NCBI GenBank assembly: GCA_964404165.1
Contig: CAYOIZ010000007.1
Coordinates: 86,897-150,896 of the forward strand
Length of the DNA stretch: 64,000 nt
Direction of reading: 5' to 3'
Source of the DNA: an uncultured Candidatus Binatia bacterium
GTDB taxonomy: Bacteria > Desulfobacterota > Binatia > DP-6
In this document: piece by piece, positions 599-60,284 of the stretch
Numbering within the stretch: the first letter of the stretch is position 1
Layout: each line of letters opens with the position of its first letter
Translations under genes and position numbers: made by a program
The notes under the pieces: generated by a model
Seen by the model: the letters and a program-made list of their open reading frames with translations, nothing else
What the model was told of the DNA's origin: nothing
Database searches by the model: none

Positions 599-913
599 CT
601 AGCGGACGATCGCGCGCAGCAGCGCGATGAGTTCGCTGTCGGTATCTGCAGCGAGTGCCAGGAGCGCGTTGCCACGGGTGGTCTCGATCTTCCCGCGGAG
701 CATTCCCTGCTGCATGAGCCCCATGAATGACTGGATACGGCGATCGGCGCGACGCAGGTTCAGGTACGCCCGATTGCCGGTGCCGATCAGGCCGAGCTGC
801 GCCTTCTTGCGCGCGGCGGTCACGCGCTTCATGAGCGCCGTGTGGCGCTTCTTGCCGCCGAGATCGACGGGCGAAGTGGAGCGCACCAGATCGAGGAGGC
901 TGGTCAGGCGGCA
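599..913 (-). other. Conserved C-terminal basic alpha-helical tail domain (104 aa) of B
   Basis: CRLTSLLDLVRSTSPVDLGGKKRHTALMKRVTAARKKAQLGL... shares the C-[RQ]-[VL] junction and a K/R-rich helix with the tails of E, F and G. Confidence 0.5.
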
Positions 914-3900
914 GACGACGAAGTTCGGGACACGCTCGTAGGAGCAGCCGTCCGTCGCGTTGCAGGCTGCGTCGATCGTGCAGGCATCGCCATCATCGCA
1001 GGTGAGGGGCGTGCCCGCCTCGCAGACGCCCGTCTGCGGGTTGCAGGCCTCGGCGCCGTTGCACACGTTGGTGTCGCCGCAGGCGACCGTGCCGGTTCCG
1101 CCGCAGACGCCGGCGGTGCAGACGTCCCCGGTGGTGCAGGCGTTGCCGTCGTCACAGGCCTCGCCCGCCACGAGCATCTCGTGCAGGCAGCCCTCCGGCG
1201 TGCAGCTGTCGACCGTGCACGGATTGCCGTCGTCGCAGCTCTTGGTGGTGAAGTTGCAGCCCGTCACCGGATCGCAGACGTCGTCGGTGCACGGGTTGTT
1301 GTCGTCGCACACCACCGGCTCGCTGCTGCAGCCCGAGCCCGGGGTGCAGGTGTTGTCGGTGCAGGCGTTGCCGTCGTCACAGGCCAGCGGCGTGCCCGCG
1401 CGGCAGCCGTCCTCCGGGTCGCAGGTCTCGACGCCGGTGCAGTTGTTGCCGTCGTCGCACTGGACGAGGCCACCCGGGTTGCAGGTGCCATTGCTGCACG
1501 TGTCGCCGGTCGTGCAGGCGTTCTCGTCGTCGCACGGCGCCTGGTTGTAGGCCGCCACGCAGCCCACCGCCGGCGCGCACGAGTCGTCCGTGCACGGATC
1601 GTCGTCGTCGCACGACGGCGGCGTGCCGCCGGTGCAGGCGCCCGTGCCGGGGTTGCAGGTCTCGGTGCCGTTGCAGGCGTTGCCGTCGCCGCACACGGTG
1701 GGCGTGGCGACGCAGGCGCCGTTCGCGCAGACGTCGCCCGTGGTGCAGAGGTCGCCGTCGCTGCACGAGTTCGTATTGTTCACGTGCTGACACCCGATCG
1801 ACGGGTTGCAGCTGTCGTTCGTGCAGACGTTGCTGTCGTTGCAGTCGAGCGGCGTGGCGTCACATGCACCGGTCGACGGGTTGCAGGTCTCGGTGCCGTT
1901 GCACGCGTTGCCGTCCCCCTGGTTGCACTGCACCGCCGCCGGCGTGAGCGTGCCCTGGCAGCTGCCGCCGCCGCAGGTGTCGCCGGTGGTGCAGGCGCTG
2001 CCGTCGTCGCAGCTCTCGGTGTTGTTCATGAAGGTGCAGCCCGTCTGCGGGTTGCACATGTCGGTGGTGCAGACGTTGCCGTCGTTACAGGCCAGGTCCT
2101 CGCCCGCAACGCACTGCCCGTTGGCCGGATTGCAGGTCTCGACGCCGTTGCAGGCGTCGCCGTCCGTGCACTGGATCGGCGTGCCGACCTGACATCCGGT
2201 CTGCTGCGAGCAGGTCTCCTCGCCGTTGCAGGGGTTGCCGTCGTTGCAGGCCGTGCCCGCCTGGCAGCCGAGATCGGGGTCGCAGGTCTCGCTGCCATTG
2301 CAGACGTTGCCGTCGTCGCAGGTGAGCGGCGTGCCCGACTGGCAGAGCTTGTTCGCGCCGCAGACCTCGGCGCCGTTGCAGGCGTTGCCGTCGTCACAGT
2401 CCGCGGCCGTGTTGCAGCTGGCGCCGCAGGCGTTGGGCGCGCTCGGCGCCGCCTCGAAGTCGAAGCCGACGACGATGTCGCGCAGCCCGGGGACGTTCGG
2501 CACGTCGAGGATCGGCACCGTGCCGACCAGGTGGCTGCCCGCGAGGTCGCCGGCGCGGAGACGGTTGCAGTCGAACGCGACGCCGGTGTCGGGAATCTCG
2601 AGGTCGAGGCCGAGGACGTTGTCACGGTCGAGGATGCGGCCCGTGGCGGTGCCGGTCGTGAGCCAGAGCAGCGCCGGCATGTTCTGCACGGTCGAGTAGG
2701 TGTCGTTGCCGTTGCAGAAGACGCCGTCCGGACCGGCGTTCACCGAGAAGCTGAACGTCAGCGGCACCGACACGCGCGCGCCACCGGCGGCATAGCTGCC
2801 GGCGAAGCTCGTGTTGATCGGGCCGTTGCACACCGCATCGCTGTCGCCGAGATGCGGGCCCGGGAGCGACCCCTGGCAGGCGAGGTCGTTCTCGCGACAC
2901 CCGAGCGTGCAGCTCGGATCGCTGACGTCCGTGTTGTGGTCCTGCGAGATGGTGACGTCGCCACCAGCGGCGCCGCCATCGCAGTCGAGGGTGCCCTGCC
3001 CGTTTCCGGTGACGGCGAAGCAGATCGCCCCGAAGCCCGCCACAGGCACCGGCGGAAGCACGACGCGATCGGACGGGACCGTGATCGTGGCTTCGCCGTT
3101 GAAGCCGTTGGGGGCCCCGATGTCGAGGCCGACCGACCCGCCCGAGCTGACCGGCGTGGAGATCGTCTCGTCACGCGTCGTGATGCTGGTGTTGCTGACG
3201 GTGTTGGCGATGTCGAAGTTGCGCAGACCGATGACGCTGCTGCCGCTCGGCTCGATCGCATCCGGCGGCACCTGGCCGGGCCCCTGCGCGGGCACCCACG
3301 CCGAGTGCGGGTTGTCGAGGAAATTGTAGTTGATGGCGTAGATCTGGTAGCCGCACACGCCGTCGCCGGTGAGGTCGCTGCTGGTGGAAAGCGTCAGGAA
3401 CCACTGGCCGAGGTTGGCGCTGAGCGGGCCCTGGACGTCGCCGGCACCGGTGATCTGGTAGAGCAGACCGTCGCTGCTGTCGTAGACGAAGACGCGGTTG
3501 CCGGTGGTGTCGTTGTCGAGCGGGTCCCCCGTGCAGATCATCGGCACGCGGACCTCGAACACACCCTGCGCCGTCACCTTCGCGCCCGGGTTGAGCGTCG
3601 GGAAGCTGCAGTCACCGTAGATCGACGGCGGCGTGAGCTCGGTGAGCGTCGCGGAGGCCGTCGCCGGGGTGGTGACGTTCGCGAGCACGACGCGGCGCCC
3701 GGCGGTGCCGGTGCTGCCCGGGAGGTTGGTGGCGGTGCTGTCAAAGGTGACGACCGGCGAGTTCTCGGCGACGAACGCGTTGCGGCTCGGGCCGTTGCCG
3801 TTCGTGAGGCGATACAGCGTGCCGGTGTGGTTCACCTTGTCGTAGTCGACGTAGTAGATCTGCGAAACGCCGGTGTTATGGCCGTTGCCGAGCAGGTCCG

Positions 3901-4630
3901 ACGTCGACTCGAAGGCGATGCGCTTGCCGTCCTGGTTGGTGACCGGACGCGTACTGGCGCCGAGCGCCGCACCACCGGCGGCGACCGACAGGCGGCGGAT
4001 GATGCCGCCGGCGCGCTCGTACACGTAGACCTGCGACGCCCCCGACGGGTTCTGCAGGCCGCCGAGCAGGGTCGCCGTCGATTCGAAGACGATGACGCCG
4101 GCGAGAACGTTGACCGACGGACGGACGCTGTCGCCGTCGGTGCTCGAGGTGATGCGGCGGACCTCGTTGGTCCGCAGGTTCTTCACGAAGATCTGCCGGC
4201 GCGTCGCCCCGGCGCCGACGAGCGGCGACAGCGAGCCACCACCGGTGAACGATCCGAGCGCGTCGAACGCGATCCACTGATCGCTGTTGCCGCTGGCGAT
4301 GTCACCGATGCTCGGGTTGGCCGGCGCACCGGGACCCGAGGTGACCTGACGGATGTACGGAGTCGATGCGGGCGGGCACGGCGTGGTGTTCTCGGTAGTG
4401 CCCTGGGCGCAGTCGTAGTACGCGAGGTTGAATACGAAGATCTGGGGCGTCGTGTTGCCCGTCGCGGCAAGGTCCTGAGACGATGCGAAGGTGAAGAAGT
4501 TGCCCCAGGCCCGACCCGAGGGGTGGGCATGGGACACCCCGCTGCTGATTTGTACGGCACCGGGTGTTTCCCGATGCAGCGCCCAGGCAGGCCCTGCAAG
4601 CAGGAGCACCGCAAGGATCCACACGTTCAT
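599..4630 (-). CDS. Giant secreted protein B: signal peptide, PD40/TolB-like beta-propeller repeats, about 14 tandem 6-Cys repeats, conserved basic C-terminal tail
   Basis: The ORF is 599..4939; I re-set the start to the ATG at 4630 (MNVWILAVLLLAGPAWA, a signal peptide). The N-terminal half has repeated Q[IV][YF]V.[ND]L / GG..YVYER blades (PD40-like). Residues from about 735 onward are CDDGNACT.D.C.P..GC repeats. The last 104 aa form a Lys/Arg-rich helical tail. Confidence 0.85.
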   Translation of the reverse strand: MNVWILAVLLLAGPAWALHRETPGAVQISSGVSHAHPSGRAWGNFFTFASSQDLAATGNTTPQIFVFNLAYYDCAQGTTENTTPCPPASTPYIRQVTSGPGAPANPSIGDIASGNSDQWIAFDALGSFTGGGSLSPLVGAGATRRQIFVKNLRTNEVRRITSSTDGDSVRPSVNVLAGVIVFESTATLLGGLQNPSGASQVYVYERAGGIIRRLSVAAGGAALGASTRPVTNQDGKRIAFESTSDLLGNGHNTGVSQIYYVDYDKVNHTGTLYRLTNGNGPSRNAFVAENSPVVTFDSTATNLPGSTGTAGRRVVLANVTTPATASATLTELTPPSIYGDCSFPTLNPGAKVTAQGVFEVRVPMICTGDPLDNDTTGNRVFVYDSSDGLLYQITGAGDVQGPLSANLGQWFLTLSTSSDLTGDGVCGYQIYAINYNFLDNPHSAWVPAQGPGQVPPDAIEPSGSSVIGLRNFDIANTVSNTSITTRDETISTPVSSGGSVGLDIGAPNGFNGEATITVPSDRVVLPPVPVAGFGAICFAVTGNGQGTLDCDGGAAGGDVTISQDHNTDVSDPSCTLGCRENDLACQGSLPGPHLGDSDAVCNGPINTSFAGSYAAGGARVSVPLTFSFSVNAGPDGVFCNGNDTYSTVQNMPALLWLTTGTATGRILDRDNVLGLDLEIPDTGVAFDCNRLRAGDLAGSHLVGTVPILDVPNVPGLRDIVVGFDFEAAPSAPNACGASCNTAADCDDGNACNGAEVCGANKLCQSGTPLTCDDGNVCNGSETCDPDLGCQAGTACNDGNPCNGEETCSQQTGCQVGTPIQCTDGDACNGVETCNPANGQCVAGEDLACNDGNVCTTDMCNPQTGCTFMNNTESCDDGSACTTGDTCGGGSCQGTLTPAAVQCNQGDGNACNGTETCNPSTGACDATPLDCNDSNVCTNDSCNPSIGCQHVNNTNSCSDGDLCTTGDVCANGACVATPTVCGDGNACNGTETCNPGTGACTGGTPPSCDDDDPCTDDSCAPAVGCVAAYNQAPCDDENACTTGDTCSNGTCNPGGLVQCDDGNNCTGVETCDPEDGCRAGTPLACDDGNACTDNTCTPGSGCSSEPVVCDDNNPCTDDVCDPVTGCNFTTKSCDDGNPCTVDSCTPEGCLHEMLVAGEACDDGNACTTGDVCTAGVCGGTGTVACGDTNVCNGAEACNPQTGVCEAGTPLTCDDGDACTIDAACNATDGCSYERVPNFVVCRLTSLLDLVRSTSPVDLGGKKRHTALMKRVTAARKKAQLGLIGTGNRAYLNLRRADRRIQSFMGLMQQGMLRGKIETTRGNALLALAADTDSELIALLRAIVR
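914..2430 (-). repeat. Tandem array of about 14 class-A 6-Cys repeats (about 36 aa each; Myxococcus cysteine-rich-repeat-like) inside B
   Basis: Periodic ...C.DGN.C(N/T).(T/D).C.(P/A)..GC..G(T/A)P..C(D/N)DGN.C... in the translation. The nucleotide sequence is correspondingly repetitive (tgcaacga / gacggcaa motifs). Confidence 0.7.
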
Positions 4631-5129
4631 CCCAAGAATCACCGCCGCTTTCGAGCTCGCACGCATATGGGGGGCCATCGAGCAGAAAACGTGCCACGAA
4701 TCGACGCATCGTGCCATGGGATAAGGCGTTAAATTCCCGGAAAGATTCCTTCTGCCGTGGGGTTTTCCACAGGTCATGCTCTCCGACGAAGCGTTCAACC
4801 GACCCCTCACTTCCGCGCGATGCATGCACGATCGCAACGAACTGCCGGCGTCGCTACGCAGGTGCGCGAGCACCCGCCATGGCTTCTGCCACACCTGACG
4901 TCCACCGAGCATCGAACGGGTACAGTGGGGCTCAACCATCTTCGGAGAATACTACACGCTCCGACCGCCGGAATCCCCGATTTATCTAGGCTCCGCTCGA
5001 TGCCCGGGCCTCCGTCTCGGCGATGCACGCTGTCGCCCCTCGGCAGCGAGCGCCGCCGCGCAATGCATCGCTGCAGGGTCTGGGAGGTTTGCAGGCGGCG
5101 CGGCGCCTGCGCTAGAGCCCGGCCCCACC

Positions 5130-6350: not shown

Positions 6351-9227
6351 TCAGTGCGGCGCGAGACAACGCAACTTGAGGTTGTCCGTGTCCGGCGTCC
6401 CGGCGGCGTCGCGCGTGCGCAGCTGCAGCTTCGTCCACGACTTGCCGGTCGGCACGCTCAGCACCATGCGGCCGCTGCACACCTCGCCCGGCCCGGTGGC
6501 GACGAACGCGCCCACGCCCTGCAGCAGTGCCGCGCGGATCGCCGCGAGCGTGCCGGTGTCGCGTGCGCTCGGACGCCGGACCTCGAGCGACGCCACCTGC
6601 ACCGCGCCGCACCCGAGACGCGCATCGTCCGCGGCGACGCACGCCCACATGCCGAAGCCGCAGCGTCCCGGCGCCGGATCGCGGTCGCATCCCGGGTCCC
6701 CGTCGGTGCAGCTCTGCTTCGTCGACGGCAGGCCCTTGCCGTCGAGCGCCGGCGACGCCAGGTACAGGGCGGTCTCGAGCTGGCAGTCGGTGAGACGCGA
6801 GCCGCCGCCCGGGATGCGCACGGCGGGCACGACCTCGGTGCAGCCGGCAGTGCACGAGCTCTCCGGCGTACCGTTGGCAGCGCCGTCGTCGCACTGCTCG
6901 CCGCAGGTGACGACGCCGTCGCCACACGTCTCGGGACGGCAGGCCGCGTTGCAGCCGTCGCAGGCGGTGGTGTTGCCGTCGTCGCAGCCCTCGCCGATCT
7001 CCGTCGTGCCGTTGCCGCAGACCGCGGTGTTGGGGTCGCAGACGAGATCGACGCGGTTGCGCCGCATGCGGCCGCCGTCGATCTCCCGCGCCGCGATGAG
7101 CAGCGGCGTCGTCCCGGCGAGCCCGGGCGGATGCGGCACGCGCACCCCGACGGGAGCCGTGCACGAATCGCGCTGGGCGACGGGAGCCCCCGCGACCAGG
7201 ACGTTGGTGCCGGCGCGCACCGTCACGCCGGTGGCCGCGAGCGCCGCCACGAGCGCGGAGGCGTTGGCGACGTCGTGCGGTGCGGTCACGAGCAACGGGT
7301 TCGGCGCGTTCAACGACACCGATTCGATCGCCGCCGGCTGGCACGACGGCACGCGAACGTCGGTGGCGCCGAGACAGACGCCGACGTCGAACAGACACTG
7401 GCCGTCGCTCGCACCGTCCTGATCGCACGCCGGATCCCCGTCGATGCATCGCTGCGTGTGCGACGGCATGCCGTCGATCACCTCGCCACCGGGGTTCTGC
7501 ACCGTCCACTCGGCGTAGCACGCGTTGCGGCCGGTGCCGCCTGCGAGGCGCTGCACGCCACCGACGGCGGGGACGACGACGCAGTCCGCGTCGCAGGAGC
7601 TGCCCGGGGCCCCGTTCGCCGCGCCGACGTCACACTCCTCGTCGCACTCGACGCGCGCGTTGCCGCAGGTTTCCTGCCGGCAACTCGCGGCACAGCCGTC
7701 GCAGGCGACGTTGTTGCCGTCGTCGCACTCCTCGCCCGGCTCGGTCGTGCCATTGCCGCAGGCAGCACCGTCGGGCGCACACGGCGGCAACAGGGGATCG
7801 AGCACCGGCACCGCCACGGGGGCGAGCACGCCGCTCAGGATCGGCGGCTGCAGCGCGTCGCGGAAGCGGATGGCGTTCACGCCCCCGACCGACGTCGTCA
7901 TCCGTCCCGCCACCGTGATGCGACCGCCGCCGAGGATCTCGTTGAGGCCGTTGGGCCCGAGCGTGCGCAGCTCGCCCGTGGCCCCGACGGTGATGCGGCA
8001 GCCGCTCACGCTGATCGTGCCGGCGAGACCCGTCGAGGCGCCGTTGGCGCGGATCACGGCACTGGCGACGACGTCCCGCCCCTGCAGCGTCACGAAGCCG
8101 CCGGTGCCGAACTGCGTGGCGCCGTCGGCCGTGATCAGGCCGGCCGCCGTCAGCGTGCCGAGCCCCTGCGCCCAGAGTGTGCCGCCCCCGCACGAGCCGC
8201 CGCCGAGATCGATGCGATCGAGACGGACGTCCCGCCCGGCCTGGACGTCGACCGACCCCCCGCAGCCGTCGATGCCGTTGCCGGTGGCGATGATCGCGGC
8301 CGTCTGCGTGATGTTCGTGCCCGCCTCGAGCGTCACCGATCCGCCCTCGCCGTCGGGGAGCGCGCCCGTGATCGTCATCACGGCGCCGAGGGTGATGGCC
8401 TGCTGCGCGCGGATGTCGATGTCGGCCCCGCTGCCGCCGCCCTCGTCGGGATCGCCGACGCCCGGGCCGTTGATGACGCCGAGCACCGAGACGGATCCGC
8501 CGGCGTCGAGCAGGACGTACCCGCCGTAGCCCGAGATGCCGCCACCGGGCACGTCGAGCTTCTGCCGCGTGACGACGTCGACGGCGGCGTCGAGCTCGAT
8601 CGAGCCGCCGCCGAAGTCGCCGCCGGCCGCGGTGAGCACCTGCGCCGCGTCGATGCTGCCGCCGGCGTGCATCGCAATGACGCCCCCATCGGCTTGCGAG
8701 CCGCCCTTCGCCTCGATGAAGCCGGTGACGGCGATGCTGCCGCCCGCCGTGACGTCCACGAGCCCGCCGCTGCCCTCCTGTCCCGATCCGTTGGTGACGA
8801 TGTCCCCGTCGATGCCGACGTCGCCCGCGGCGACGAGCATGACGGTGCCGGCGGCGAGCGCCGCCGAGACGTCCACGCGCGCCCGCGCACTGCCGGCGAC
8901 CTCGACGGTGATCGCACCGGCGGAGCGGAGGGTCAGGCTCGGTCCGAAGTCGCCACCGGTGCCGAGGACGCGCGCGCCGGGCAGCAGACGCACCGGACCT
9001 GCGTCGATCGTCACGGCCCCCGACAGGACCAGCCGGCCCTGGGCGCCCAGGTGCAGCGCCCGGGTCCCGAGATCGATGGCCGACCCCGGCGTGAGCGTCA
9101 CAACGGTGTTGACGACGCACGGATCGGCGAGCGACGTGCAGAGCTCGTCGGCGACCGTCGCCCGTGCGAGCGGCACGCACCCGAGGAGACATGCGGCGAC
9201 CGACAACCACGACCTGACGACATGCAT
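6351..9227 (-). CDS. Giant secreted protein C: signal peptide, Gly-rich parallel beta-helix, two duplicated class-B Cys-repeat modules; no basic tail
   Basis: MHVVRSWLSVAACLLGCVPLARA signal peptide. The N-terminal 50 aa are about 50% identical to the N-terminus of F. GG.GG.I.I.A...I repeats are typical of a right-handed beta-helix. From residue about 490 there are two copies of CGNGTTE.GE.CDDGN..ACDGC.A.CR.ETCG..., each followed by a TQ(R/S)C.DGDP.CD.D Cys-rich unit. Confidence 0.8.
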   Translation of the reverse strand: MHVVRSWLSVAACLLGCVPLARATVADELCTSLADPCVVNTVVTLTPGSAIDLGTRALHLGAQGRLVLSGAVTIDAGPVRLLPGARVLGTGGDFGPSLTLRSAGAITVEVAGSARARVDVSAALAAGTVMLVAAGDVGIDGDIVTNGSGQEGSGGLVDVTAGGSIAVTGFIEAKGGSQADGGVIAMHAGGSIDAAQVLTAAGGDFGGGSIELDAAVDVVTRQKLDVPGGGISGYGGYVLLDAGGSVSVLGVINGPGVGDPDEGGGSGADIDIRAQQAITLGAVMTITGALPDGEGGSVTLEAGTNITQTAAIIATGNGIDGCGGSVDVQAGRDVRLDRIDLGGGSCGGGTLWAQGLGTLTAAGLITADGATQFGTGGFVTLQGRDVVASAVIRANGASTGLAGTISVSGCRITVGATGELRTLGPNGLNEILGGGRITVAGRMTTSVGGVNAIRFRDALQPPILSGVLAPVAVPVLDPLLPPCAPDGAACGNGTTEPGEECDDGNNVACDGCAASCRQETCGNARVECDEECDVGAANGAPGSSCDADCVVVPAVGGVQRLAGGTGRNACYAEWTVQNPGGEVIDGMPSHTQRCIDGDPACDQDGASDGQCLFDVGVCLGATDVRVPSCQPAAIESVSLNAPNPLLVTAPHDVANASALVAALAATGVTVRAGTNVLVAGAPVAQRDSCTAPVGVRVPHPPGLAGTTPLLIAAREIDGGRMRRNRVDLVCDPNTAVCGNGTTEIGEGCDDGNTTACDGCNAACRPETCGDGVVTCGEQCDDGAANGTPESSCTAGCTEVVPAVRIPGGGSRLTDCQLETALYLASPALDGKGLPSTKQSCTDGDPGCDRDPAPGRCGFGMWACVAADDARLGCGAVQVASLEVRRPSARDTGTLAAIRAALLQGVGAFVATGPGEVCSGRMVLSVPTGKSWTKLQLRTRDAAGTPDTDNLKLRCLAPH
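6460..7760 (-). repeat. Duplicated class-B Cys-rich modules (CGNGxxExGExCDDGN...DGCxxxC) of protein C
   Basis: Two modules of about 200 aa that align with each other in the translation; consistent with the Myxococcus cysteine-rich repeat (TIGR02232-like). The family assignment is from memory, not a search. Confidence 0.55.
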
Positions 9228-12174: not shown

Positions 12175-12546
12175 TCAGGACTTGGGCTGACAGTCGAGCA
12201 CGGGATTGCCGACGCTGTTCCACGTGCAGGTCTTGGTGGACGCGGGATGGTCGGTGGTCAGGCGGTACGAGACGCCGTCGCTCTCGCACTCGGTGAAGAC
12301 CACGCCCTCGGAGGGCGTGAAGCCAGGCAGCGCGCTGCAGTCGTCGGAGTACTCCAGGTGGTCCAGGAAGAACGCCTCCTGCCCCGCTGCAGCGTTGCGC
12401 ACGTCGGTCACGATGCGCGCGTCGTATCCCTTCCCCTGTCGTGCCGCGAAGTTCGGGATGGCGATGGCGGCAAGGATGCCGATCACCGACATGACGACCA
12501 TCAGCTCGACCAGGGTGAATCCCCGATTGCGTGCCCGCGTGTCCAT
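12175..12546 (-). CDS. Type IV pilin / pseudopilin with an N-terminal methylation motif
   Basis: RGFTLVELMVVMSVIGILAAIAIPNF, with Gly at -1 and Glu at +5. Four Cys in the C-terminal region suggest disulfide loops. Confidence 0.85.
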   Translation of the reverse strand: MDTRARNRGFTLVELMVVMSVIGILAAIAIPNFAARQGKGYDARIVTDVRNAAAGQEAFFLDHLEYSDDCSALPGFTPSEGVVFTECESDGVSYRLTTDHPASTKTCTWNSVGNPVLDCQPKS

Positions 12547-12718
12547 GCGCCCTCGAAGTGCAAGCCAGGTGCCACCGCTGGGCCCCGTCGGCGCAGGGTG
12601 GCGGTGCCACGCGGCGATGCGTTGGCGCCACCGGCGCCACGCGCGTGACGCCGAAACCGCATGACGCTGTGCGTTTCGCGATGGCCAGATTTCCGCGCAT
12701 TGGGTAAGAACGGAAGGG

Positions 12719-13423
12719 ATGCCCGACGCCGCTCACCGCGCCGGCACCCGTCTCCCGCGCGTGCCATCCCTCCTCTTCGCCTGCGTCCTCCTGTTGAACG
12801 CGCTGCCCGCACCGGCGTCCGCCGCCCGTTGCGGCGACGACGTCGACGGTCGCGGCACCCGCGTGGGCTGCGCCTGCGGGGATGTCGTCGTGAGCTCCGT
12901 GCGGCTCGATGCCGCCGACCCCATCGTGCAGGCGCCCTGTCCGGCGGCGGGCCTCGTCGTCGACGTGCCGTCGTCGGTTGCGCTGCCGACGCTCGACCTC
13001 GGCGGCCTCACGCTCGCCGGCAGCGGACGCGGCATCGGCATCGACGTCCTCTCGGGCGGACGGGCCGGGCTCGCGCTCGTCGGTCCCGGCACCGTGCGTG
13101 GATTCGACCATGGCGTCGCAGCCCGCGAAGGCACACTGGCGCAGGCGTCGTCGGTGCGCGCCGACGGCAACGCCCGCGACGGCTTCCGACTGGCCGGACG
13201 CGGGTACCATCTCGTCGCCTGCAGCGCCGAGCACAATGGACGCGACGGCTTCGTGCTGCAGGGCCAGGACTACCGGCTCGACGACTGCACCGCGGTCGCC
13301 AACGGGCGCGACGGCTTCGCCGTCCGCGGCCGCCCTGCGGCCCCGGTCGACGCCGCCAACGCCGCCACCGACAACGGTCGCCGCGGCGCCCGCACGCGCA
13401 GCCGCGCCGCGAGGTCGCGATGA
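12719..13423 (+). CDS. Small secreted parallel beta-helix repeat protein D, translationally coupled to giant protein E
   Basis: Signal peptide LLFACVLLLNALPAPASAA. Repeated ...NARDGFRLAG / HNGRDGFVLQG / ANGRDGFAVRG (PbH1-like). Arg-rich C-terminus. Stop TGA at 13421..13423 overlaps the ATG of E at 13420. The overlapping N-terminal extension of ORF 12661.. is in another frame and is Arg-rich junk. Confidence 0.65.
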   Translation: MPDAAHRAGTRLPRVPSLLFACVLLLNALPAPASAARCGDDVDGRGTRVGCACGDVVVSSVRLDAADPIVQAPCPAAGLVVDVPSSVALPTLDLGGLTLAGSGRGIGIDVLSGGRAGLALVGPGTVRGFDHGVAAREGTLAQASSVRADGNARDGFRLAGRGYHLVACSAEHNGRDGFVLQGQDYRLDDCTAVANGRDGFAVRGRPAAPVDAANAATDNGRRGARTRSRAARSR

Positions 13424-16400
13424 TCCGCGCACTCGCGGGCGCCCTCGTCGCCATCGGGCTGCTCCTCGGCACCGCGGGCGGGTCCAGCGCCGCCAACTGC
13501 ACCAAAGGACCCGTGTGCGGTGCGAAGCCGTTCACCGACGACGCCTCCTGCTGCTTCGGCCTCTACTGCCAGCTCGACGGCGACGTGCAGCTGTCGGGTC
13601 CCGATTGCGTGCTCGATTTCGGCAACCGTGACGTCACGATCTCCGGCAAGGTCCAGCTCGGCACCAAGCGTCTCAAGATCCGCGCCAAGAGCCTCGTCAT
13701 CGCGAATGGGGTGGATGGTCGCGGTGCCGCGGGATCACGCGGCGGCACGCTCGAGATCGAGACCTTCGTCGGCACGGCGCTCGACTTCCGCCTGCTCACG
13801 AACGCCGCCAAGATCGACCTCTCCGGCGGCATCGGAGGCGGCGTGTTCGCCATCGCGGCACAGGGTGGCATCTCGCTCGAACAGGGCGAGATCCGCGCCG
13901 ACGGTCTCACCGCAGCGGCGCCCGGTGGCAGCATCGATCTGCGGAGCGAGACCGGCAACATCCACGTCGGGACGGTCCTGGCGGCGGACGACGGCACCCT
14001 CACCGGCGGTGGCTCGTCCCGCATCGGCCTGCAGGCAGTCGCCGGCGGGATCACGCTGAACGGCGCGAACCTCAGCGCCTCCGCCGGCAGCATCGACATC
14101 GCAGCGCGCGACACCGTGTCGAGCGACCAGGGGGCGAAGCTCCGCACCGACCGCGGCGGCGCGATCGACATCGTCGGCAGCGCCCTGACGCTGGCGGGCG
14201 AAGCCACCGCGACCTGGGGCAGCATCAACCTGCACGCCACGACCGGCGCCCTCGCCGTCACGCGGACGAGCCAGCCCGGCCTCCGCGTCGACGCGAGCAG
14301 CGACGGCGACACCGGCGAGATCGCGCTCATGGCCGATGCGCCCGGTCCGGCCGGCACCATCACCATCGCGACGCCCATCGTCGCGCCCGGCGCCGACGTC
14401 GAGGCCCACGCCACCGGGCTCCTCCGCGTCACGAAGAAGCTCAACGCCAGCGGCACGCCCGCCGACGGGGAGACCACGGGCGGTGGCCAGGTCGTGCTCG
14501 AGAGCGAGCTCCTCGACATCGAGATCACCGACGACGTCCTCGCCAACGACAACCTGACCGAGGGCAGCGTCGATCTGAGCGCCGGACACGACGTCATCCT
14601 GAACGGCGGCGTCGAGGCCAAGGGCACCATGGGCGGGCCGGGCGGCGCCGTCACCATCAGCGCCGGCCGCGACATGCGCCTCGGCGCGGGACGCACCATC
14701 GACGCGTCCGGTGGCGAATCGGGCGGCAGCGTCGAGGTGCGCGCGGGCGGACGCATCGAGCTGGTCGGAACGAGCAAGATCGACGCCGGCACCGGCGCCC
14801 CCGGCCCGGGCGGCCTCATCGATCTCGCCGCCGGCGCCGACGGTGAGGCGGGCGCGCTCGCCATCGCCGGCAGCGTCGTCGCCAAGACCAAGGACGCTGG
14901 CAACGCGCCGAGCACGATCCTGCTCGAGGGCTGCGACATCACGATCGCGGCGGCGGGCACCGTCGACAGCAATCGCCTCGGCAGCAACGGCGCCCACGGC
15001 AGCAACAGCCTCACCGCCCGCAAGAGCGTCACCGTCGCCGGCAAGATCCTCGGTGGCGGCGGCAACTTCCTCACGTCGGTATCGGCGGCGTCTGGCGGCG
15101 GCCAGGTCGCGCCCGCGTTCACGCTCTCGCTCCGCCCCGCCTGCACCGACAATGGCGTGCCGGCGGGATGCCTGCTCCCCTGCCCCACCTGCGGCGACGG
15201 CGTGGAACAGTTCCCCGAAACCTGCGACGGCGGCGCCGCCGATCGCTGCACGAGCAAGTGCGGCCCAACCTGCCGAGACGACCTGGTCTGCGATGCGGCG
15301 CTCGCCTGCGCGGGCATCGCCTGCGACACGGTCGGCGGCTGCTACTTCGGCCCTGTCCCCCAGGGGACGACGTGCAACGACGGCAACGCCTGCACCGCGA
15401 ACGACGTCTGCAGCAGCGGCGCGTGCCACGGCCCGGACGTGGTCGTCTGCGACGACGGCAATGCGTGCAACGGCGTCGAGACGTGCCCGAGCGCCGCCGG
15501 CTGCCAGGCCGGCACGCCGCCCAACTGCGACGACGGCAATCCCTGCACCACCGACAGCTGCGCGCCCGCGGCGGGCTGCCAGCACACGCCCAACGCGGCT
15601 CCCTGTGACGACGGCGATGCCTGCACCGAGAACGACGCCTGCGGCGACAGCGCCTGCCAGGCCGGGAGCGCACGCACGTGTCCGGCCGGGGAGATCTGCG
15701 TCGCACCGACCGGGTGCGAGACGGCGCCGGCGTGCAACGAGGCCGCGGATTGCGACGACGACAACGCCTGCAACGGTGTCGAGACGTGTGTGAACGACGC
15801 CTGCGTGGCGGGAACGCCCCTCACCTGCAACGACGGCAACGTCTGCAACGGTACCGAGACGTGCGATCCCGCGACCGGCTGCAAGGCGGGAATCGCCTGC
15901 GACGACGGCAACCCCTGCAACGGCACCGAGACCTGCTCGCAGGAGACCGGCTGCCACGCCGGAACGCCTCCCAGCTGCGCCGACACCGACGTCTGCACCA
16001 CCGACAGCTGCAACCCGCTCTCGGGATGCGTCAACACCCCCGTCGGAGGCGACTGCTGCAACCTCGCGTCCGACTGTGCCGATGACGGCGACGTCTGCAC
16101 CGACGCCACCTGCGTCGCCCATGCGTGCGTCTTCGAGACCAGCGCGCTCTGCTGTCAGAACCCGGCCGATTGCGCGGACGGCAACCCCTGCACCACGGAC
16201 GACGTCTGCAACGTCGCCAATCGCTGCGAGCACGCGCTCCTCGAGGGCACGCAGCCGGGGTGCGGTGACGCCTGCGCGCCGGGAAGCTGCGCCGACGGCA
16301 TCTGTGTCGCGGGCGAGCCCACGGTCTGCGACGACGGCGAGGTGTGCACCGCGGACACCTGCGCGCCGAGCACGGGATGCGTCTTCACCGGCGTCGTGGG

Positions 16401-17136
16401 CTGCTGCGAGACGAACGCCGGATGCGACGACGGCGCGCCCTGCACCGTCGACACGTGCGACACCGACACCCACACCTGCAGCCACGTCGTCGACGAGCTG
16501 TGCAGCGAGTGCGTCACCGACAGCGACTGCGATCCGCTCGGCACCTGTGGCGGCATGGCATGCCAGAGCGGCGTCTGCGTCTCGACGCCGCCCCTCGACT
16601 GCGACGACGCCAACCAGTGCACCGTCGACACCTGTCCCGACGCGCGCGGCTGCGTGCACACCATCCGCTCCTGCGACGACGGACGCGCCTGCAACGGCGC
16701 CGAGTCCTGCAGCCCACTCGACGGCTGCCGCGCGGGCACGGTCCCCGACTGCGACGACGGCGACCGCTGCACCGACGACACGTGCAGCGAGCCGACCGGG
16801 TGCACCCACGTCCAGCGCACGGGCTTCCCGGGCGTCGTCTGTCAGCTCGACACCGTGTCGGCGTTCCTCGATGGTGCGAGCACCGACGAGCTCACGGCGA
16901 AGCTCAAGCGCAAGCTCGGCAAGCTCCTCACCAAGGTGCGGGCCACCCTGCGCAAGGCCGAGTCCACCGGCAGCGCCCGCAAGCGGGCCAAGCTCGCCGG
17001 CAAGGCAGCCAACCAGCTACGTGGCCTCTCACGCGCCATCGACAAGGGGCGCGATCGCGGCATCGCCGGCGATCTGGCCGACGTCCTGCGCCGGGCCGTC
17101 GACGGCGCAGCCACGACCGCGGGCACCCTGCGCTGA
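13420..17136 (+). CDS. Giant secreted protein E: signal peptide, long Gly-rich beta-helical (hemagglutinin/autotransporter-passenger-like) region, about 15 class-A Cys repeats, basic C-terminal tail
   Basis: Start ATG at 13420 (MIRALAGALVAIGLLLGTAGGSSA). About 580 aa of G..I.L....I.A repeats. Cys repeats run from about 15181. The last 98 aa are KLKRKLGKLLTKVRATLRKAE... Confidence 0.85.
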   Translation: MIRALAGALVAIGLLLGTAGGSSAANCTKGPVCGAKPFTDDASCCFGLYCQLDGDVQLSGPDCVLDFGNRDVTISGKVQLGTKRLKIRAKSLVIANGVDGRGAAGSRGGTLEIETFVGTALDFRLLTNAAKIDLSGGIGGGVFAIAAQGGISLEQGEIRADGLTAAAPGGSIDLRSETGNIHVGTVLAADDGTLTGGGSSRIGLQAVAGGITLNGANLSASAGSIDIAARDTVSSDQGAKLRTDRGGAIDIVGSALTLAGEATATWGSINLHATTGALAVTRTSQPGLRVDASSDGDTGEIALMADAPGPAGTITIATPIVAPGADVEAHATGLLRVTKKLNASGTPADGETTGGGQVVLESELLDIEITDDVLANDNLTEGSVDLSAGHDVILNGGVEAKGTMGGPGGAVTISAGRDMRLGAGRTIDASGGESGGSVEVRAGGRIELVGTSKIDAGTGAPGPGGLIDLAAGADGEAGALAIAGSVVAKTKDAGNAPSTILLEGCDITIAAAGTVDSNRLGSNGAHGSNSLTARKSVTVAGKILGGGGNFLTSVSAASGGGQVAPAFTLSLRPACTDNGVPAGCLLPCPTCGDGVEQFPETCDGGAADRCTSKCGPTCRDDLVCDAALACAGIACDTVGGCYFGPVPQGTTCNDGNACTANDVCSSGACHGPDVVVCDDGNACNGVETCPSAAGCQAGTPPNCDDGNPCTTDSCAPAAGCQHTPNAAPCDDGDACTENDACGDSACQAGSARTCPAGEICVAPTGCETAPACNEAADCDDDNACNGVETCVNDACVAGTPLTCNDGNVCNGTETCDPATGCKAGIACDDGNPCNGTETCSQETGCHAGTPPSCADTDVCTTDSCNPLSGCVNTPVGGDCCNLASDCADDGDVCTDATCVAHACVFETSALCCQNPADCADGNPCTTDDVCNVANRCEHALLEGTQPGCGDACAPGSCADGICVAGEPTVCDDGEVCTADTCAPSTGCVFTGVVGCCETNAGCDDGAPCTVDTCDTDTHTCSHVVDELCSECVTDSDCDPLGTCGGMACQSGVCVSTPPLDCDDANQCTVDTCPDARGCVHTIRSCDDGRACNGAESCSPLDGCRAGTVPDCDDGDRCTDDTCSEPTGCTHVQRTGFPGVVCQLDTVSAFLDGASTDELTAKLKRKLGKLLTKVRATLRKAESTGSARKRAKLAGKAANQLRGLSRAIDKGRDRGIAGDLADVLRRAVDGAATTAGTLR
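15181..16839 (+). repeat. Tandem class-A 6-Cys repeat array of E
   Basis: CDDGNACNGVETC..AAGCQAGTPPNCDDGNPCTTDSCAPAAGCQHTP... recurs about 15 times. Confidence 0.7.
16840..17136 (+). other. Conserved C-terminal basic alpha-helical tail domain (98 aa) of E
   Basis: CQLDTVSAFLDGASTDELTAKLKRKLGKLLTKVRATLRKAESTGSARKRAKLAGKAANQLRGL... Confidence 0.5.
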
Positions 17137-17302: not shown

Positions 17303-19948
17303 ATGAGACTCCCCGTCCGCCTGGTCCTCGGATTCCTGGCCTGTCTCCCCGCCGTGGCCCATGCCACGACGGCCGACGACCTGTGTCTGCCCGCTGCCGA
17401 TCCCTGCATCGTCTCGAACAGGCAGATCACCGTCACCGACGGCTCGATCATCGACCTGGGCGCGCGGACCCTGATCCTGCGCTCCGGCTCGGCCCTGACG
17501 GTGGCGCCGGGTCCGCTGGCGGGCGGGACCATGACCCTCAAGGCGGGCAACGTCACCCTCGAGGGCGGCACGGCGCTCAAGGGGAGCGGCGCCGACATCA
17601 ACGTCGACGTCACCGGGACCATCCAGGTCCTCAAGACGAACAGCCTGGCCCGGATCGACGTCGCCGGCACCTCGCCCGGCAACATCGAGCTCGACGCCGA
17701 TGGCGACATCCTCATCCAGGGCATCCTCGACGCCGGTTCGGGCGCGGTGTCGTCCGACGGCGGCGTCGTCCTCGTCCACGGCATGAACCTGTCGGTGCCG
17801 GGAACCGTCGACGTCCACGGCGGCAAGGACGCGACGGGCGGCGTCATCGAGCTCGACGCCCTCGGCTCCATCAACGTCTCCGGCAACGTCGACGCCACGG
17901 GCGGCGACGGCGGCGACGTCGAGATCGACGCGTTCGGCGAGCTCGTCACTACCGGCAAGCTCGATCTGAAGGCGACGCTCGGTGGCGGCTTCGGCGGCAC
18001 CCTCGTCCTCGGCACCTCGAACGGCCGCCTCGCGCTGGGCGGCACCATCGACATGCAGGGCGAGGCCGGCGGCGACGGCGGCGGCGACGGCGGCGACCTC
18101 GACGTGTTCGCGGGCGAGTCGCTCGAGATCACCGCCACGATCGACCTGCGCGGCGCCTCTCCCGACGGCAGCGGCGGTGGAGCGGCGTTCTCCGCCGATG
18201 TGGACATCATCCAGACGGCGCCCATCCTCGCCCAGGGCCAGGGTCAGGAGAGCGCCGGCGGCAGCGTGGAGTTCAGCGCCGAGCGCAAGGTCGTGCTCGG
18301 CTCCGTCAACGCGTTCGGCGGCGGACAGGGATTCGGCGGCACGGTCGTCGCCACCGCATGGTGCGATCTCCAGCTGCCTGCCGGCAAGGCGATCAACGCC
18401 ACCGCGCTCGGTGGGGACACCACGCTCCGATCCGGCGGCGCCATGACCATCGACGGCACGGTGACGGCCGGCACCGCCAACCGCATCTACCACCGCACCG
18501 GCGAGACGCCGGTGTTGAACCTCGCCGGCATCCTGCCCGCACCCAGCGTCACCCCCGACGACAACCTGATCCCCTGTGGCGGCCTCCCCACGCCGGGCTG
18601 CGGCAACAACATCGTCGAGGCCGGCCTCGGCGAGCAGTGCGACGACAACAACACCGACTCCTGCGACGGCTGCTCGTCGATGTGCAAGAATGAGGTCTGC
18701 GGCAACGGGGTCACCGAGTGTCTCGAGGTGTGCGACGACGGCAACACCGCGAGCGGCGACGGCTGCCAGAACGACTGCCTGCGGGTCGAGAACATCTGCG
18801 GCGACGGCATCACGGATGCCGCCGAGACCTGCGACGACAGCAACACCGACGCCTGCGACGGCTGCTCGGCAACCTGCCAGACCGAGGCGTGCAACAACGG
18901 CGTCGTCGAGTGCGCCGAGGAGTGCGACGACGGCCAGCCCGGCGTCGGCTTCTGCGACGACTCGTGCCAGATCGTTCCGCCGCCGAACTGCGGCGACGGC
19001 GTGGTCGATCAGGCCGAGGGCGAGCAGTGCGACGACGACAACACGACCGACTGCGACGGCTGCTCGAGCCTCTGCCAGACCGAGGGCTGCGGCAACGGCC
19101 GCGTCGAGTGCCTCGAGTCGTGCGACGACTTCAACACCGCGTCGTGCGACGGCTGCTCGCCGACCTGCGGTGTCGAGGAGTGCGGCAACGGCGTCCTCGA
19201 CTGCTTCGAGACCTGCGACGACGCCGGCCCGGGCAGCCTCTGTCTGCCGGGTGTCTGCGAGCAGGGCGAGTTCTGCACGTCCGAGACGGCCGCCGAGCAG
19301 CCGTGCATCGCCTGCGCCAGCGACCTCGACTGCGACCCGATGGGCGCCTGCGGCCCGAGCACGTGCGTCGACAACCCCGACAAGGGCCGCAAGGAGTGCA
19401 CGCCCACCGACGCCCCGTCGTGCGACGACGGCAACGCCTGCACGGTGGACGCGTGCGACGCCGCCACCGGCTGCGTCACCACGCCGCGCATCTGCGACGA
19501 CGGCCAGGCCTGCAACGGCTCGGAGACGTGTGACCCCACCGCCGGCTGCGTCAGCATGGCGCTGACGTGCGACGACGGCGACGTCTGCAGCGACGACAGC
19601 TGTGACGATGCCACCGGCTGCAGCTACACGCTGCGCTCCGGCCTGGCGCTGGTGAGCTGCCGCGTCGAGGAGATCAACGCCATCGTCACCGCCGCCGGCA
19701 CCGATCTCGCCACTCCCGCGCGCAAGAAGCTCACCAAAGCGATCAAGAGCATTCGCGCGAAGGTCGCGGCCGCCGGGTCCACGAAGACGAAGAAGGCGAG
19801 CCGTGCCGTGAAGGCCGCCAGCAAGCAGCTCCCGAAGCTCGGGACCCTCGTCACCAAGCTCGGCGCGCAGATCCCGGCACCGATCGCCTCCGACCTCACG
19901 CAGGCCATCGGCAGCGCCACCCAGGCCATCGCGCTGGTTCCGCGCTGA
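17303..19948 (+). CDS. Giant secreted protein F: signal peptide, beta-helix with N-terminus homologous to C, class-B then class-A Cys repeats, basic C-terminal tail
   Basis: Start ATG at 17303 (MRLPVRLVLGFLACLPAVAHA). The upstream part of ORF 16076.. is out-of-frame read-through of the 3' end of E. ATTADDLCLPAADPCIVSNRQITVTDGSIIDLGARTLILRSG matches the N-terminus of C. Class-B CGNNIVEAGLGEQCDDNNTDSCDGCSSMC... repeats come first, then CDDGNACTVDACDAATGC repeats, then the tail CRVEEINAIV...KKLTKAIKSIRAKVAAAG... Confidence 0.85.
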   Translation: MRLPVRLVLGFLACLPAVAHATTADDLCLPAADPCIVSNRQITVTDGSIIDLGARTLILRSGSALTVAPGPLAGGTMTLKAGNVTLEGGTALKGSGADINVDVTGTIQVLKTNSLARIDVAGTSPGNIELDADGDILIQGILDAGSGAVSSDGGVVLVHGMNLSVPGTVDVHGGKDATGGVIELDALGSINVSGNVDATGGDGGDVEIDAFGELVTTGKLDLKATLGGGFGGTLVLGTSNGRLALGGTIDMQGEAGGDGGGDGGDLDVFAGESLEITATIDLRGASPDGSGGGAAFSADVDIIQTAPILAQGQGQESAGGSVEFSAERKVVLGSVNAFGGGQGFGGTVVATAWCDLQLPAGKAINATALGGDTTLRSGGAMTIDGTVTAGTANRIYHRTGETPVLNLAGILPAPSVTPDDNLIPCGGLPTPGCGNNIVEAGLGEQCDDNNTDSCDGCSSMCKNEVCGNGVTECLEVCDDGNTASGDGCQNDCLRVENICGDGITDAAETCDDSNTDACDGCSATCQTEACNNGVVECAEECDDGQPGVGFCDDSCQIVPPPNCGDGVVDQAEGEQCDDDNTTDCDGCSSLCQTEGCGNGRVECLESCDDFNTASCDGCSPTCGVEECGNGVLDCFETCDDAGPGSLCLPGVCEQGEFCTSETAAEQPCIACASDLDCDPMGACGPSTCVDNPDKGRKECTPTDAPSCDDGNACTVDACDAATGCVTTPRICDDGQACNGSETCDPTAGCVSMALTCDDGDVCSDDSCDDATGCSYTLRSGLALVSCRVEEINAIVTAAGTDLATPARKKLTKAIKSIRAKVAAAGSTKTKKASRAVKAASKQLPKLGTLVTKLGAQIPAPIASDLTQAIGSATQAIALVPR
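18585..19657 (+). repeat. Mixed class-B and class-A Cys-repeat region of F
   Basis: See F. This is the only protein in the window that carries both repeat classes. Confidence 0.65.
19658..19948 (+). other. Conserved C-terminal basic alpha-helical tail domain (96 aa) of F
   Basis: CRVEEINAIVTAAGTDLATPARKKLTKAIKSIRAKVAAAGSTKTKKASRAVKAASKQL... The histone-H1-like KAAK pattern is evident. Confidence 0.5.
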
Positions 19949-59718: not shown

Positions 59719-59988
59719 ATGAAGTGGACGTCGTGGGTGACGCTCGTCGCGCTGGTGGTGATCATCGGCGGCGTCGTCTGGTCGAGCTTCCGCATCGGCG
59801 GCGTGCGCTGCGAGGTGTGCATCACCTTCGAGGGTCGTGAGGCCTGTCGCGCCGTCGACGGCAACACCGCCGAGGAGGCCCGCATGGCCGCCGTCACCAA
59901 CACGTGCGCGCTGCTGGCGTCGGGCGTGACGCAGGTGATCGCCTGCGAGCGCACCCCGCCCACCAAGAGCAGCTGCGACGGTTCCTAA
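59719..59988 (+). CDS. Small membrane-anchored Cys-containing protein (89 aa)
   Basis: ATG start. N-terminal TM helix WVTLVALVVIIGGVVW. Five Cys in a 60-aa ectodomain. Its 3' end overlaps the convergent stop of G by 4 nt. Confidence 0.5.
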   Translation: MKWTSWVTLVALVVIIGGVVWSSFRIGGVRCEVCITFEGREACRAVDGNTAEEARMAAVTNTCALLASGVTQVIACERTPPTKSSCDGS

Positions 59989-60284
59989 CCCAGCGGCGGA
60001 CCGAGCCCGCTCACGGCATCGATCGCCGCATCGGCACTGCGACGGATCTGCCGTTCGAGCACCGGGCCGAGCTTCTTGCGTCCGCGACGCACCTGGCCGA
60101 CGAGTGCCTGCAACGCGGCCTTCACGCGACGGATCTCGCGCCGCGCGGCCTTCGTCGAGGACGCCGCCTTCGCCCGCGAGACCGCGGCTTCGACCTTCCC
60201 GAGGCGCTTCTGGAGTGGCGCCGCCATGGCCCCGCCACCGTCGGGCGCCGACGACAGGATGAAGCGGATCTCCTCGACGCGGCA
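59985..60284 (-). other. Conserved C-terminal basic alpha-helical tail domain (99 aa) of G
   Basis: Begins CRVEEI, exactly as in F. Confidence 0.5.

Follow-up and report, generated by a model that had tools for sequence, protein, structure and literature searches.

Gene F, on the forward strand of a 64,000-nucleotide (nt) stretch of DNA from an uncultured Candidatus Binatia bacterium (contig CAYOIZ010000007.1, assembly GCA_964404165.1), encodes a conserved and syntenic secreted protein whose Cys-rich region is most readily understood as a disulfide-rich stalk joining a beta-helix head to a basic C-terminal tail. We give this reading, within which we infer Ca2+ binding and a spacer or anchor role, a probability of about 0.75. 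The region consists of two already catalogued repeat families set within an unstudied protein of an uncultured phylum. All positions are coordinates of the whole stretch analysed, hereafter the window, which has a G+C content of about 71% and encodes five large secreted Cys-rich proteins, called here B, C, E, F and G.

Architecture of gene F

The product of gene F comprises, from N- to C-terminus, a signal peptide, a beta-helix, seven units of a first repeat class (class B), a linker, three units of a second repeat class (class A) and a four-helix-bundle tail:

17303..19948, forward strand: gene F, 881 amino acids (aa); an identical protein is found in an NCBI assembly, on a contig of 168 kb, and in a Logan assembly, and there are orthologues; AlphaFold2 predicted local distance difference test (pLDDT) 88
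17303..17371, forward strand: putative signal peptide, aa 1-23, MRLPVRLVLGFLACLPAVAHA{{|}}TT; a hydrophobic N-terminus with an AxA end, read from the sequence
17372..18574, forward strand: beta-helix head, aa 24-424; Gly-rich and right-handed, with three-strand coils in the AlphaFold2 model (pLDDT >90), 35% identical to the N-terminus of C
18599..19273, forward strand: seven class B units (TIGR02232/DUF4215), aa 433-657
19274..19420, forward strand: Cys-rich linker, aa 658-706 (49 aa, 7 Cys), with the motif C(I/T)xCxxDxDCDPxGxCG
19421..19642, forward strand: three class A units (Dicty_CTDC), aa 707-730, 731-755 and 756-780, with 4 Cys each and a Tandem Repeats Finder period of 75 nt
19643..19945, forward strand: basic four-helix bundle, aa 781-881; isoelectric point (pI) 10.9, net charge +13, one Cys at aa 786

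NCBI already labels F as a 'DUF4215 domain-containing protein'. The signal-peptide start and motif recur in orthologues, and AlphaFold2 places a low-confidence helix at aa 4-13. The open reading frame (ORF) listing puts the starts of E and F upstream, at 12661 and 16076, overextending them by about 250 and 410 codons, respectively, of Arg/Pro-rich, out-of-context sequence; because of the signal peptides and the orthologues, the real starts are placed at 13420 for E and at 17303 for F, the latter being the start common to F orthologues (MRLPVRLVLGFLACLPAVAHA{{|}}TTADD).

The Cys-rich region contains two distinct repeat families

The Cys-rich region spans aa 425-786 (nt 18575-19660; 15% Cys), in close agreement with the interval 18585-19657 proposed in an earlier reading of this DNA (hereafter the sequence-only reading). 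That reading had also recognised two classes of Cys-rich repeats, both present in F, had assigned class B to TIGR02232/PF13948, and had named hmmscan as the check, with EGF and TNFR as the unrelated domains to look for. These proposals hold. Class B of F matches TIGR02232 in five stretches (95.6 bits, E 1e-27, cut-off 20.8) and Pfam PF13948, DUF4215 (56.3 bits, E 4e-15, cut-off 27), both well above their cut-offs. Class A, which the earlier reader had left unnamed, is the Dictyostelium 24-residue repeat family PF00526, Dicty_CTDC (34.5 bits, E 1.8e-8, cut-off 27). The two classes thus fall to separate models, neither of them EGF or TNFR; no similarity to EGF or TNFR was found by sequence, and Foldseek matches to TNFR (4-1BB) and EGFR had E>5 and a probability of at most 0.02. 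The proposed distribution over the five proteins also agrees with the calls of the curated models: C carries only class B; B, E and G carry only class A (Dicty_CTDC scores of 77.4, 70.3 and 51.1 bits, respectively, cut-off 27); and F carries both.

An alternative would be that classes A and B are divergent forms of one repeat family, the array of F being single and heterogeneous. Both are acidic, occupy adjoining positions and have in common a CDDG(N) core and four core Cys, and in E the equivalent head/stalk junction is occupied by a degenerate class-B-like unit (aa 591-620, score 5.0). However, their periods differ (31-33 aa for class B, 24-25 aa for class A), as do their curated models and their AlphaFold2 secondary structure, which is mostly coil with single bridges in class B and regular hairpins in class A. 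When profiles of the two classes derived from the window were compared with hhalign, only the tetrapeptide CDDG was aligned (4 columns, 11% probability), and hidden Markov models (HMMs) built from each class scored 22-54 bits on their own units and no more than about 3 bits on those of the other. A single family is accordingly unlikely, and the two repeat classes are distinct, belonging to different curated families.

The dimensions given for the units in the sequence-only reading, in contrast, need correction. The seven class B units begin at aa 433, 466, 499, 530, 563, 596 and 627 (nt 18599, 18698, 18797, 18890, 18989, 19088 and 19181) and measure 31-33 aa (93-99 nt) instead of about 40 aa, whereas the class A units, put at about 36 aa, measure 24, 25 and 25 aa. 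Neither class has the six Cys attributed to both: there are 4 in each class A unit, and 5, 5, 5, 5, 5, 6 and 5 along the class B array. Three disulfides per unit, deduced for both classes from this miscount, are therefore not supported. The class B units are contiguous and acidic (net charge -49), fit the pattern C-G-[ND]-G ... C-D-D ... D-G-C-x3-C, and alternate as a two-unit super-repeat for which a direct-repeat finder gives a period of 192-198 nt. In class A, C1, C7, C12 and C18 are invariant across 40 units from the window. The linker motif is kept in orthologues and in E (aa 1027-1060).

The repeat array of F is old and fixed

The architecture of F recurs in about 55 full-length orthologues of 30-70% identity, which mostly contain 50-67 Cys in total and have a tail of 89-106 aa. 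Conservation is not uniform along the protein: mean identity to F is 53% in the class B segment, its most conserved part, 38% in the head and 30% in the tail. Individual units can be recognised position by position in orthologues, as for the fourth unit, ending in ...IVPPPN.

The sequence-only reading had described the nucleotide arrays as highly repetitive and hence as a substrate for slippage or recombination that would change the number of repeats. In its full form this would make F a strain-variable protein of the kind of phase- or length-variable surface proteins. Tandem arrays are indeed visible in the DNA, as 2.3 copies of the 75-nt period reported by Tandem Repeats Finder and as a 176-nt family of 4 copies, and the more distant orthologues vary modestly: over the approximately 55 sequences, a rough pattern count gives from 4 to 11 units of class B (mostly 5-8) and from 0 to 4 of class A. 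Nevertheless, the DNA copies have diverged: in class B, identity to the reference copy is 61-75%, and in class A the copies are 74-78% identical. Exact direct repeats in the region reach at most 18 nt, compared with a mean of 12.3 and a maximum of 16 nt in codon-shuffled controls, and the non-repeat N-terminal half of the gene reaches the same length. Among the nine closest relatives scored, all have seven class B units and seven have three class A units. The closest comparison is with HEV7733099.1, from a Candidatus Binatia metagenome-assembled genome, which is at least 90% identical to F and 882 aa long: a single 1-aa indel separates the two, together with substitutions at 6-8% in the repeats. 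F thus shows neither the near-identical DNA repeats nor the polymorphism of unit number among close relatives that mark length-variable contingency-type repeat genes. Because the copies have diverged, the counts are stable among orthologues, and class B is the most conserved segment, slippage is not supported and a strain-variable array is very improbable; the array of F is old and fixed.

If any array of the window is prone to gain or loss of units, the likeliest is the class A array of B (926-2398, reverse strand), which has 19 units and an exact DNA repeat of 28 nt (at 1133 and 1358), longer than any in the other four genes.

Structural model and disulfides

AlphaFold2, run with an alignment of orthologues, gave a pLDDT of 88 for the whole of F and of 90 for aa 421-792 alone. 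The model consists of a regular beta-helix (aa 24-424), the coil-rich class B segment, one beta-hairpin per class A unit and a four-helix bundle (aa 781-877). A Foldseek search of this model against the PDB returned nothing at E<=1e-3. Membership of the head in the EtpA/two-partner secretion (TPS) group was considered and rejected, as the match (E 0.04, TM-score 0.47) came with no Pfam TPS match and leaves a generic beta-helix likeness. No solved structure matched the profile of the 40 class A units at E<=10.

For class B, phmmer identified a matching segment in PAPP-A (E 0.0075), and one class B unit in the model of F could be superposed on the M3 domain of PAPP-A at 0.8 Å over 32 columns with 53% identity. 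M3 is the only solved relative of class B. It is a small domain of coil and strand (S944-G995) with evidence for two bound Ca2+ (PMC9579167).

Mature F contains 60 Cys, an even number that is compatible with full oxidation, although not proof of it. In class B, four core Cys are accompanied by two facultative ones: unit i contributes the first of the two Cys in its xCDGC motif, and unit i+1 the one in VxEC. Over adjacent class B pairs from 56 orthologues, both facultative Cys were present in 171 and neither in 107, while 34 pairs were discordant, counts that are not phylogenetically independent and are inflated by shared ancestry; several of the discordant pairs listed come from shifts in parsing or from units that carry two extra Cys. 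This covariation suggests that a disulfide formed by the facultative Cys links neighbouring class B units, and such a link would account for the two-unit super-repeat. Toward the C-terminus, Cys parity (7 in the linker, 12 in class A, 1 in the tail) implies one or more bonds between different segments. Where a Thr-rich linker takes the place of the class A units, the tail retains a C-x(10-13)-C pair. For class A, parity and patterns of Cys loss gave conflicting hints, and we claim no pairing.

The abundance of Cys (15% of the region) could also be taken to mean that the region is no structural stalk but a thiolate metal-binding one, as in metallothioneins or redox-active proteins. Against this stand the N-terminal signal peptide and the even Cys number of mature F, and the conservation of the Cys pattern in the extracellular Dictyostelium-type repeats of PF00526. 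The PAPP-A module is extracellular as well, and for its region intradomain disulfides and Ca2+ are reported, not thiolate metal sites. We consider thiolate metal binding highly unlikely.

The idea that the F frame is an artefact of high G+C, its repeats untranslated and the real gene antisense, can be discarded as virtually without chance: two antisense ORFs with high G+C at third codon positions (GC3 0.96-0.97) do overlie the Cys-rich region (18487-19008 and 19009-19623, both reverse strand), but they look like shadow ORFs, since antisense frames that have their third positions in common with the sense frame inherit its GC3, and it is the sense frame that scores far above curated HMM cut-offs, has dozens of full-length orthologues and yields a pLDDT of 88-90.

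A probable disulfide-braced extracellular stalk

The likeliest reading of the Cys-rich region is therefore that of a rigid, acidic, disulfide-braced extracellular stalk, probably stabilised by Ca2+. F would be exported by the Sec pathway, after which all 60 Cys of the mature protein would be oxidised. The facultative Cys would bridge adjacent class B units into a rigid, cross-braced rod, and the acidic class B units may bind Ca2+, by homology with PAPP-A M3. With lower confidence, the stalk would space a ligand-binding or enzymatic head from the tail, and the tail, also with lower confidence, might anchor F to an anionic cell surface or direct it to a common destination.

Several points weigh against this reading. 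Both repeat families are annotated as of unknown function; in the literature, we found no functional study of either family in bacteria, and the papers that mention them do so solely as unknown-function domains of adhesive or surface proteins. The Ca2+ binding is carried over from one homologous animal module. The disulfide pairings are deduced, and shared ancestry bears on the Cys covariation behind them. The fold matches of head and tail are not significant. Finally, no F-specific anchor, secretion system or partner gene was found nearby, the neighbours being metabolic.

The main value of this analysis is corrective, in that it provides the right unit sizes and Cys counts and leaves slippage unsupported; the finding is otherwise ordinary. 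Beyond this, the covariation of facultative Cys points to cross-linked neighbouring DUF4215 units, and PAPP-A M3, with its two reported Ca2+ sites, leads to the concrete hypothesis that this large family, whose function is unknown, is stabilised by Ca2+.

A basic C-terminal tail common to four of the proteins

The tail of F consists of four helices in the AlphaFold2 model (aa 781-801, 804-823, 829-852 and 859-877; pLDDT about 90). It is common to B (602-910, reverse strand), E (16843-17133, forward strand), F (19643-19945, forward strand) and G (59988-60281, reverse strand), in each of which it measures about 100 aa, has a pI of about 11 and starts with G[FL]xxVxCRL. According to an exhaustive profile search, 618 representative clusters carry the tail. 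Of the 150 matches listed, nearly all have it at the C-terminus, the exceptions being multi-stretch or internal matches, and it mostly follows directly a class A unit of the CT.D type, sometimes a Thr-rich linker. The heads of 40 other tail carriers include a DUF5122 propeller, FG-GAP, Beta_helix/NosD, phosphoesterase, PKD and bacterial Ig-like domains. Among 84 loci fetched, tail carriers were of Binatia type only. A further search of the tail profile against a word-indexed set of 5.8 billion proteins returned two matches and was uninformative.

The tail has no consistent match among Pfam, NCBIfam or PDB sequence families. Pfam DUF6490, Collagen_mid and Apolipoprotein were rejected as its identity, being below cut-off and inconsistent across members, as were four-helix bundles of the Avd/Xcc0516 type (TM-score about 0.7, E 0.5-1.5, 13% identity), which reflect a generic likeness among bundles. 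No cognate machinery was identified.

Because one C-terminal module is found on many extracellular heads, the tail is a candidate new domain for sorting or anchoring, in a phylum without cultured members. A more specific proposal is possible but doubtful: the final Dicty_CTDC-type unit together with the tail may constitute an undescribed domain that serves varied secreted heads as a common signal for surface anchoring, assembly or export sorting, restricted to Binatia-type assemblies among the loci examined, and an extracellular lattice could even arise by electrostatic pairing of the basic tail with the acidic Cys repeats.

Paralogues and mosaic origin of F

The four other Cys-rich proteins of the window are encoded as follows:

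602..4669, reverse strand: paralogue B; propeller-like head, 19 class A units at nt 926-2398, tail at nt 602-910; start codon uncertain
6354..9227, reverse strand: paralogue C; F-like beta-helix, class B at nt 7569-7760 and 6828-7019, no tail
13420..17136, forward strand: paralogue E; class A array at nt 15373-16821 with about 14 clear units, tail at nt 16843-17133
59988..63155, reverse strand: paralogue G; Pfam Beta_helix head, class A array at nt 60303-60917, tail at nt 59988-60281

F resembles two of them in different parts. Its aa 11-500, comprising the beta-helix and the first class B units, match C (35% identity, E 5e-56), and its aa 586-878, comprising the last class B units, the linker, class A and the tail, match the C-terminus of E (36% identity, E 9e-34). 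By these sequence relationships, F is an ancient mosaic of C-like and E-like parts. Since orthologues have the same layout, the 'fusion' is older than the divergence of these Binatia lineages. The earlier statement that F fuses both classes is thus correct in that both are present; what it describes is the conserved architecture of an orthologue family, not a local fusion event.

Two of these paralogues have features of their own. C, alone of the five proteins in lacking the common tail, looks internally duplicated: a block of two class B units and a Cys-containing domain without a family match occurs twice, at aa 490-736 (unmatched domain of about 185 aa) and aa 737-958 (about 160 aa). In E, a degenerate class-B-like unit (CGDGVEQFPETCDGGAADRCTSKCGPTC; 15190-15279, forward strand) lies at the head/stalk junction; it scores 5.0 bits with an HMM built from the window, receives no TIGR02232 call, and may be a vestige of the junction found in F and C.

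Genomic neighbourhood

F is neighboured by genes for a thiolase, a DUF218 protein, a glutaredoxin, a pilin-like protein, an amidohydrolase and an SDR. In three relatives of Binatia type, L002 (GCA_026129405.1), L003 and L004, the order is syntenic: a C-like gene, a ChsH2-like gene, thiolase, DUF218, glutaredoxin, BolA, a prepilin-type gene, (D, E) F and amidohydrolase, with F directly after the prepilin-type gene, without D or E, in L003 and L004. The locus of F is core chromosome and not an island. In L003, F is followed a few kb downstream by an Omp85/TamB pair, and in L002 by an Omp85 gene; as the whole region is syntenic core genome, we do not claim these as partners of F. A scan for promoters and terminators returned nothing above shuffle expectation.

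Two small genes lie beside or within the row formed by D, E and F. A gene with a prepilin-type N-terminal methylation motif (N_methyl; 12175-12546, reverse strand, 123 aa) is divergent from this row, and its adjacency to the F orthologue is kept in L002, L003 and L004, at 40-46% identity. Gene D (12719-13423, forward strand) encodes 234 aa with a signal-peptide-like N-terminus, a Gly/Asp-rich repeat pattern and no Pfam match; its stop overlaps the start of E, and L002 has a 207-aa gene at the same position.

Comparison with known systems

The C-terminal sorting or anchoring modules of secreted bacterial proteins include the T9SS CTD, PEP-CTERM and SLH. The tail of F resembles such modules generically, as one conserved C-terminal module found on many extracellular heads. 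It differs from these three in having no relation to them in sequence or fold, being a soluble basic bundle without a transmembrane segment or a beta-sandwich.

The class A units of F, E, B and G are like PF00526 Dicty_CTDC in their period of 24-25 aa and their 4 Cys. They are unlike the Dictyostelium members in their bacterial host and in that the last unit runs straight into the four-helix-bundle tail.

Class B units have close counterparts in TIGR02232 (myxo_disulf_rpt, 'cysteine-rich acidic repeat') and PF13948, which match aa 433-657 of F as well as C and have the same motif, CGNG..E.GE.CDDGN....DGC...C..E. The likeness extends to the arrangement in tandem acidic units, to the occurrence in secreted proteins and to a similar range (Myxococcota, Binatia and Peregrinibacteria, from a scan of a genome collection with a 9-sequence alignment). 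The units of F differ in having one or two extra Cys that covary between neighbours, and in their two-unit super-repeat.

Finally, the M3 domain of human PAPP-A and PAPP-A2 (PDB 7Y5N, 8A7D, 7UFG and 8SL1), like F, contains a class-B-like unit, in one copy, CGDGIIQKDQGEQCDDMNKINGDGCSLFCRQE. Unlike in F, it is a single module inside a metalloproteinase and not a tandem stalk, and it is devoid of the extra Cys that, in F, would connect one unit to the next.

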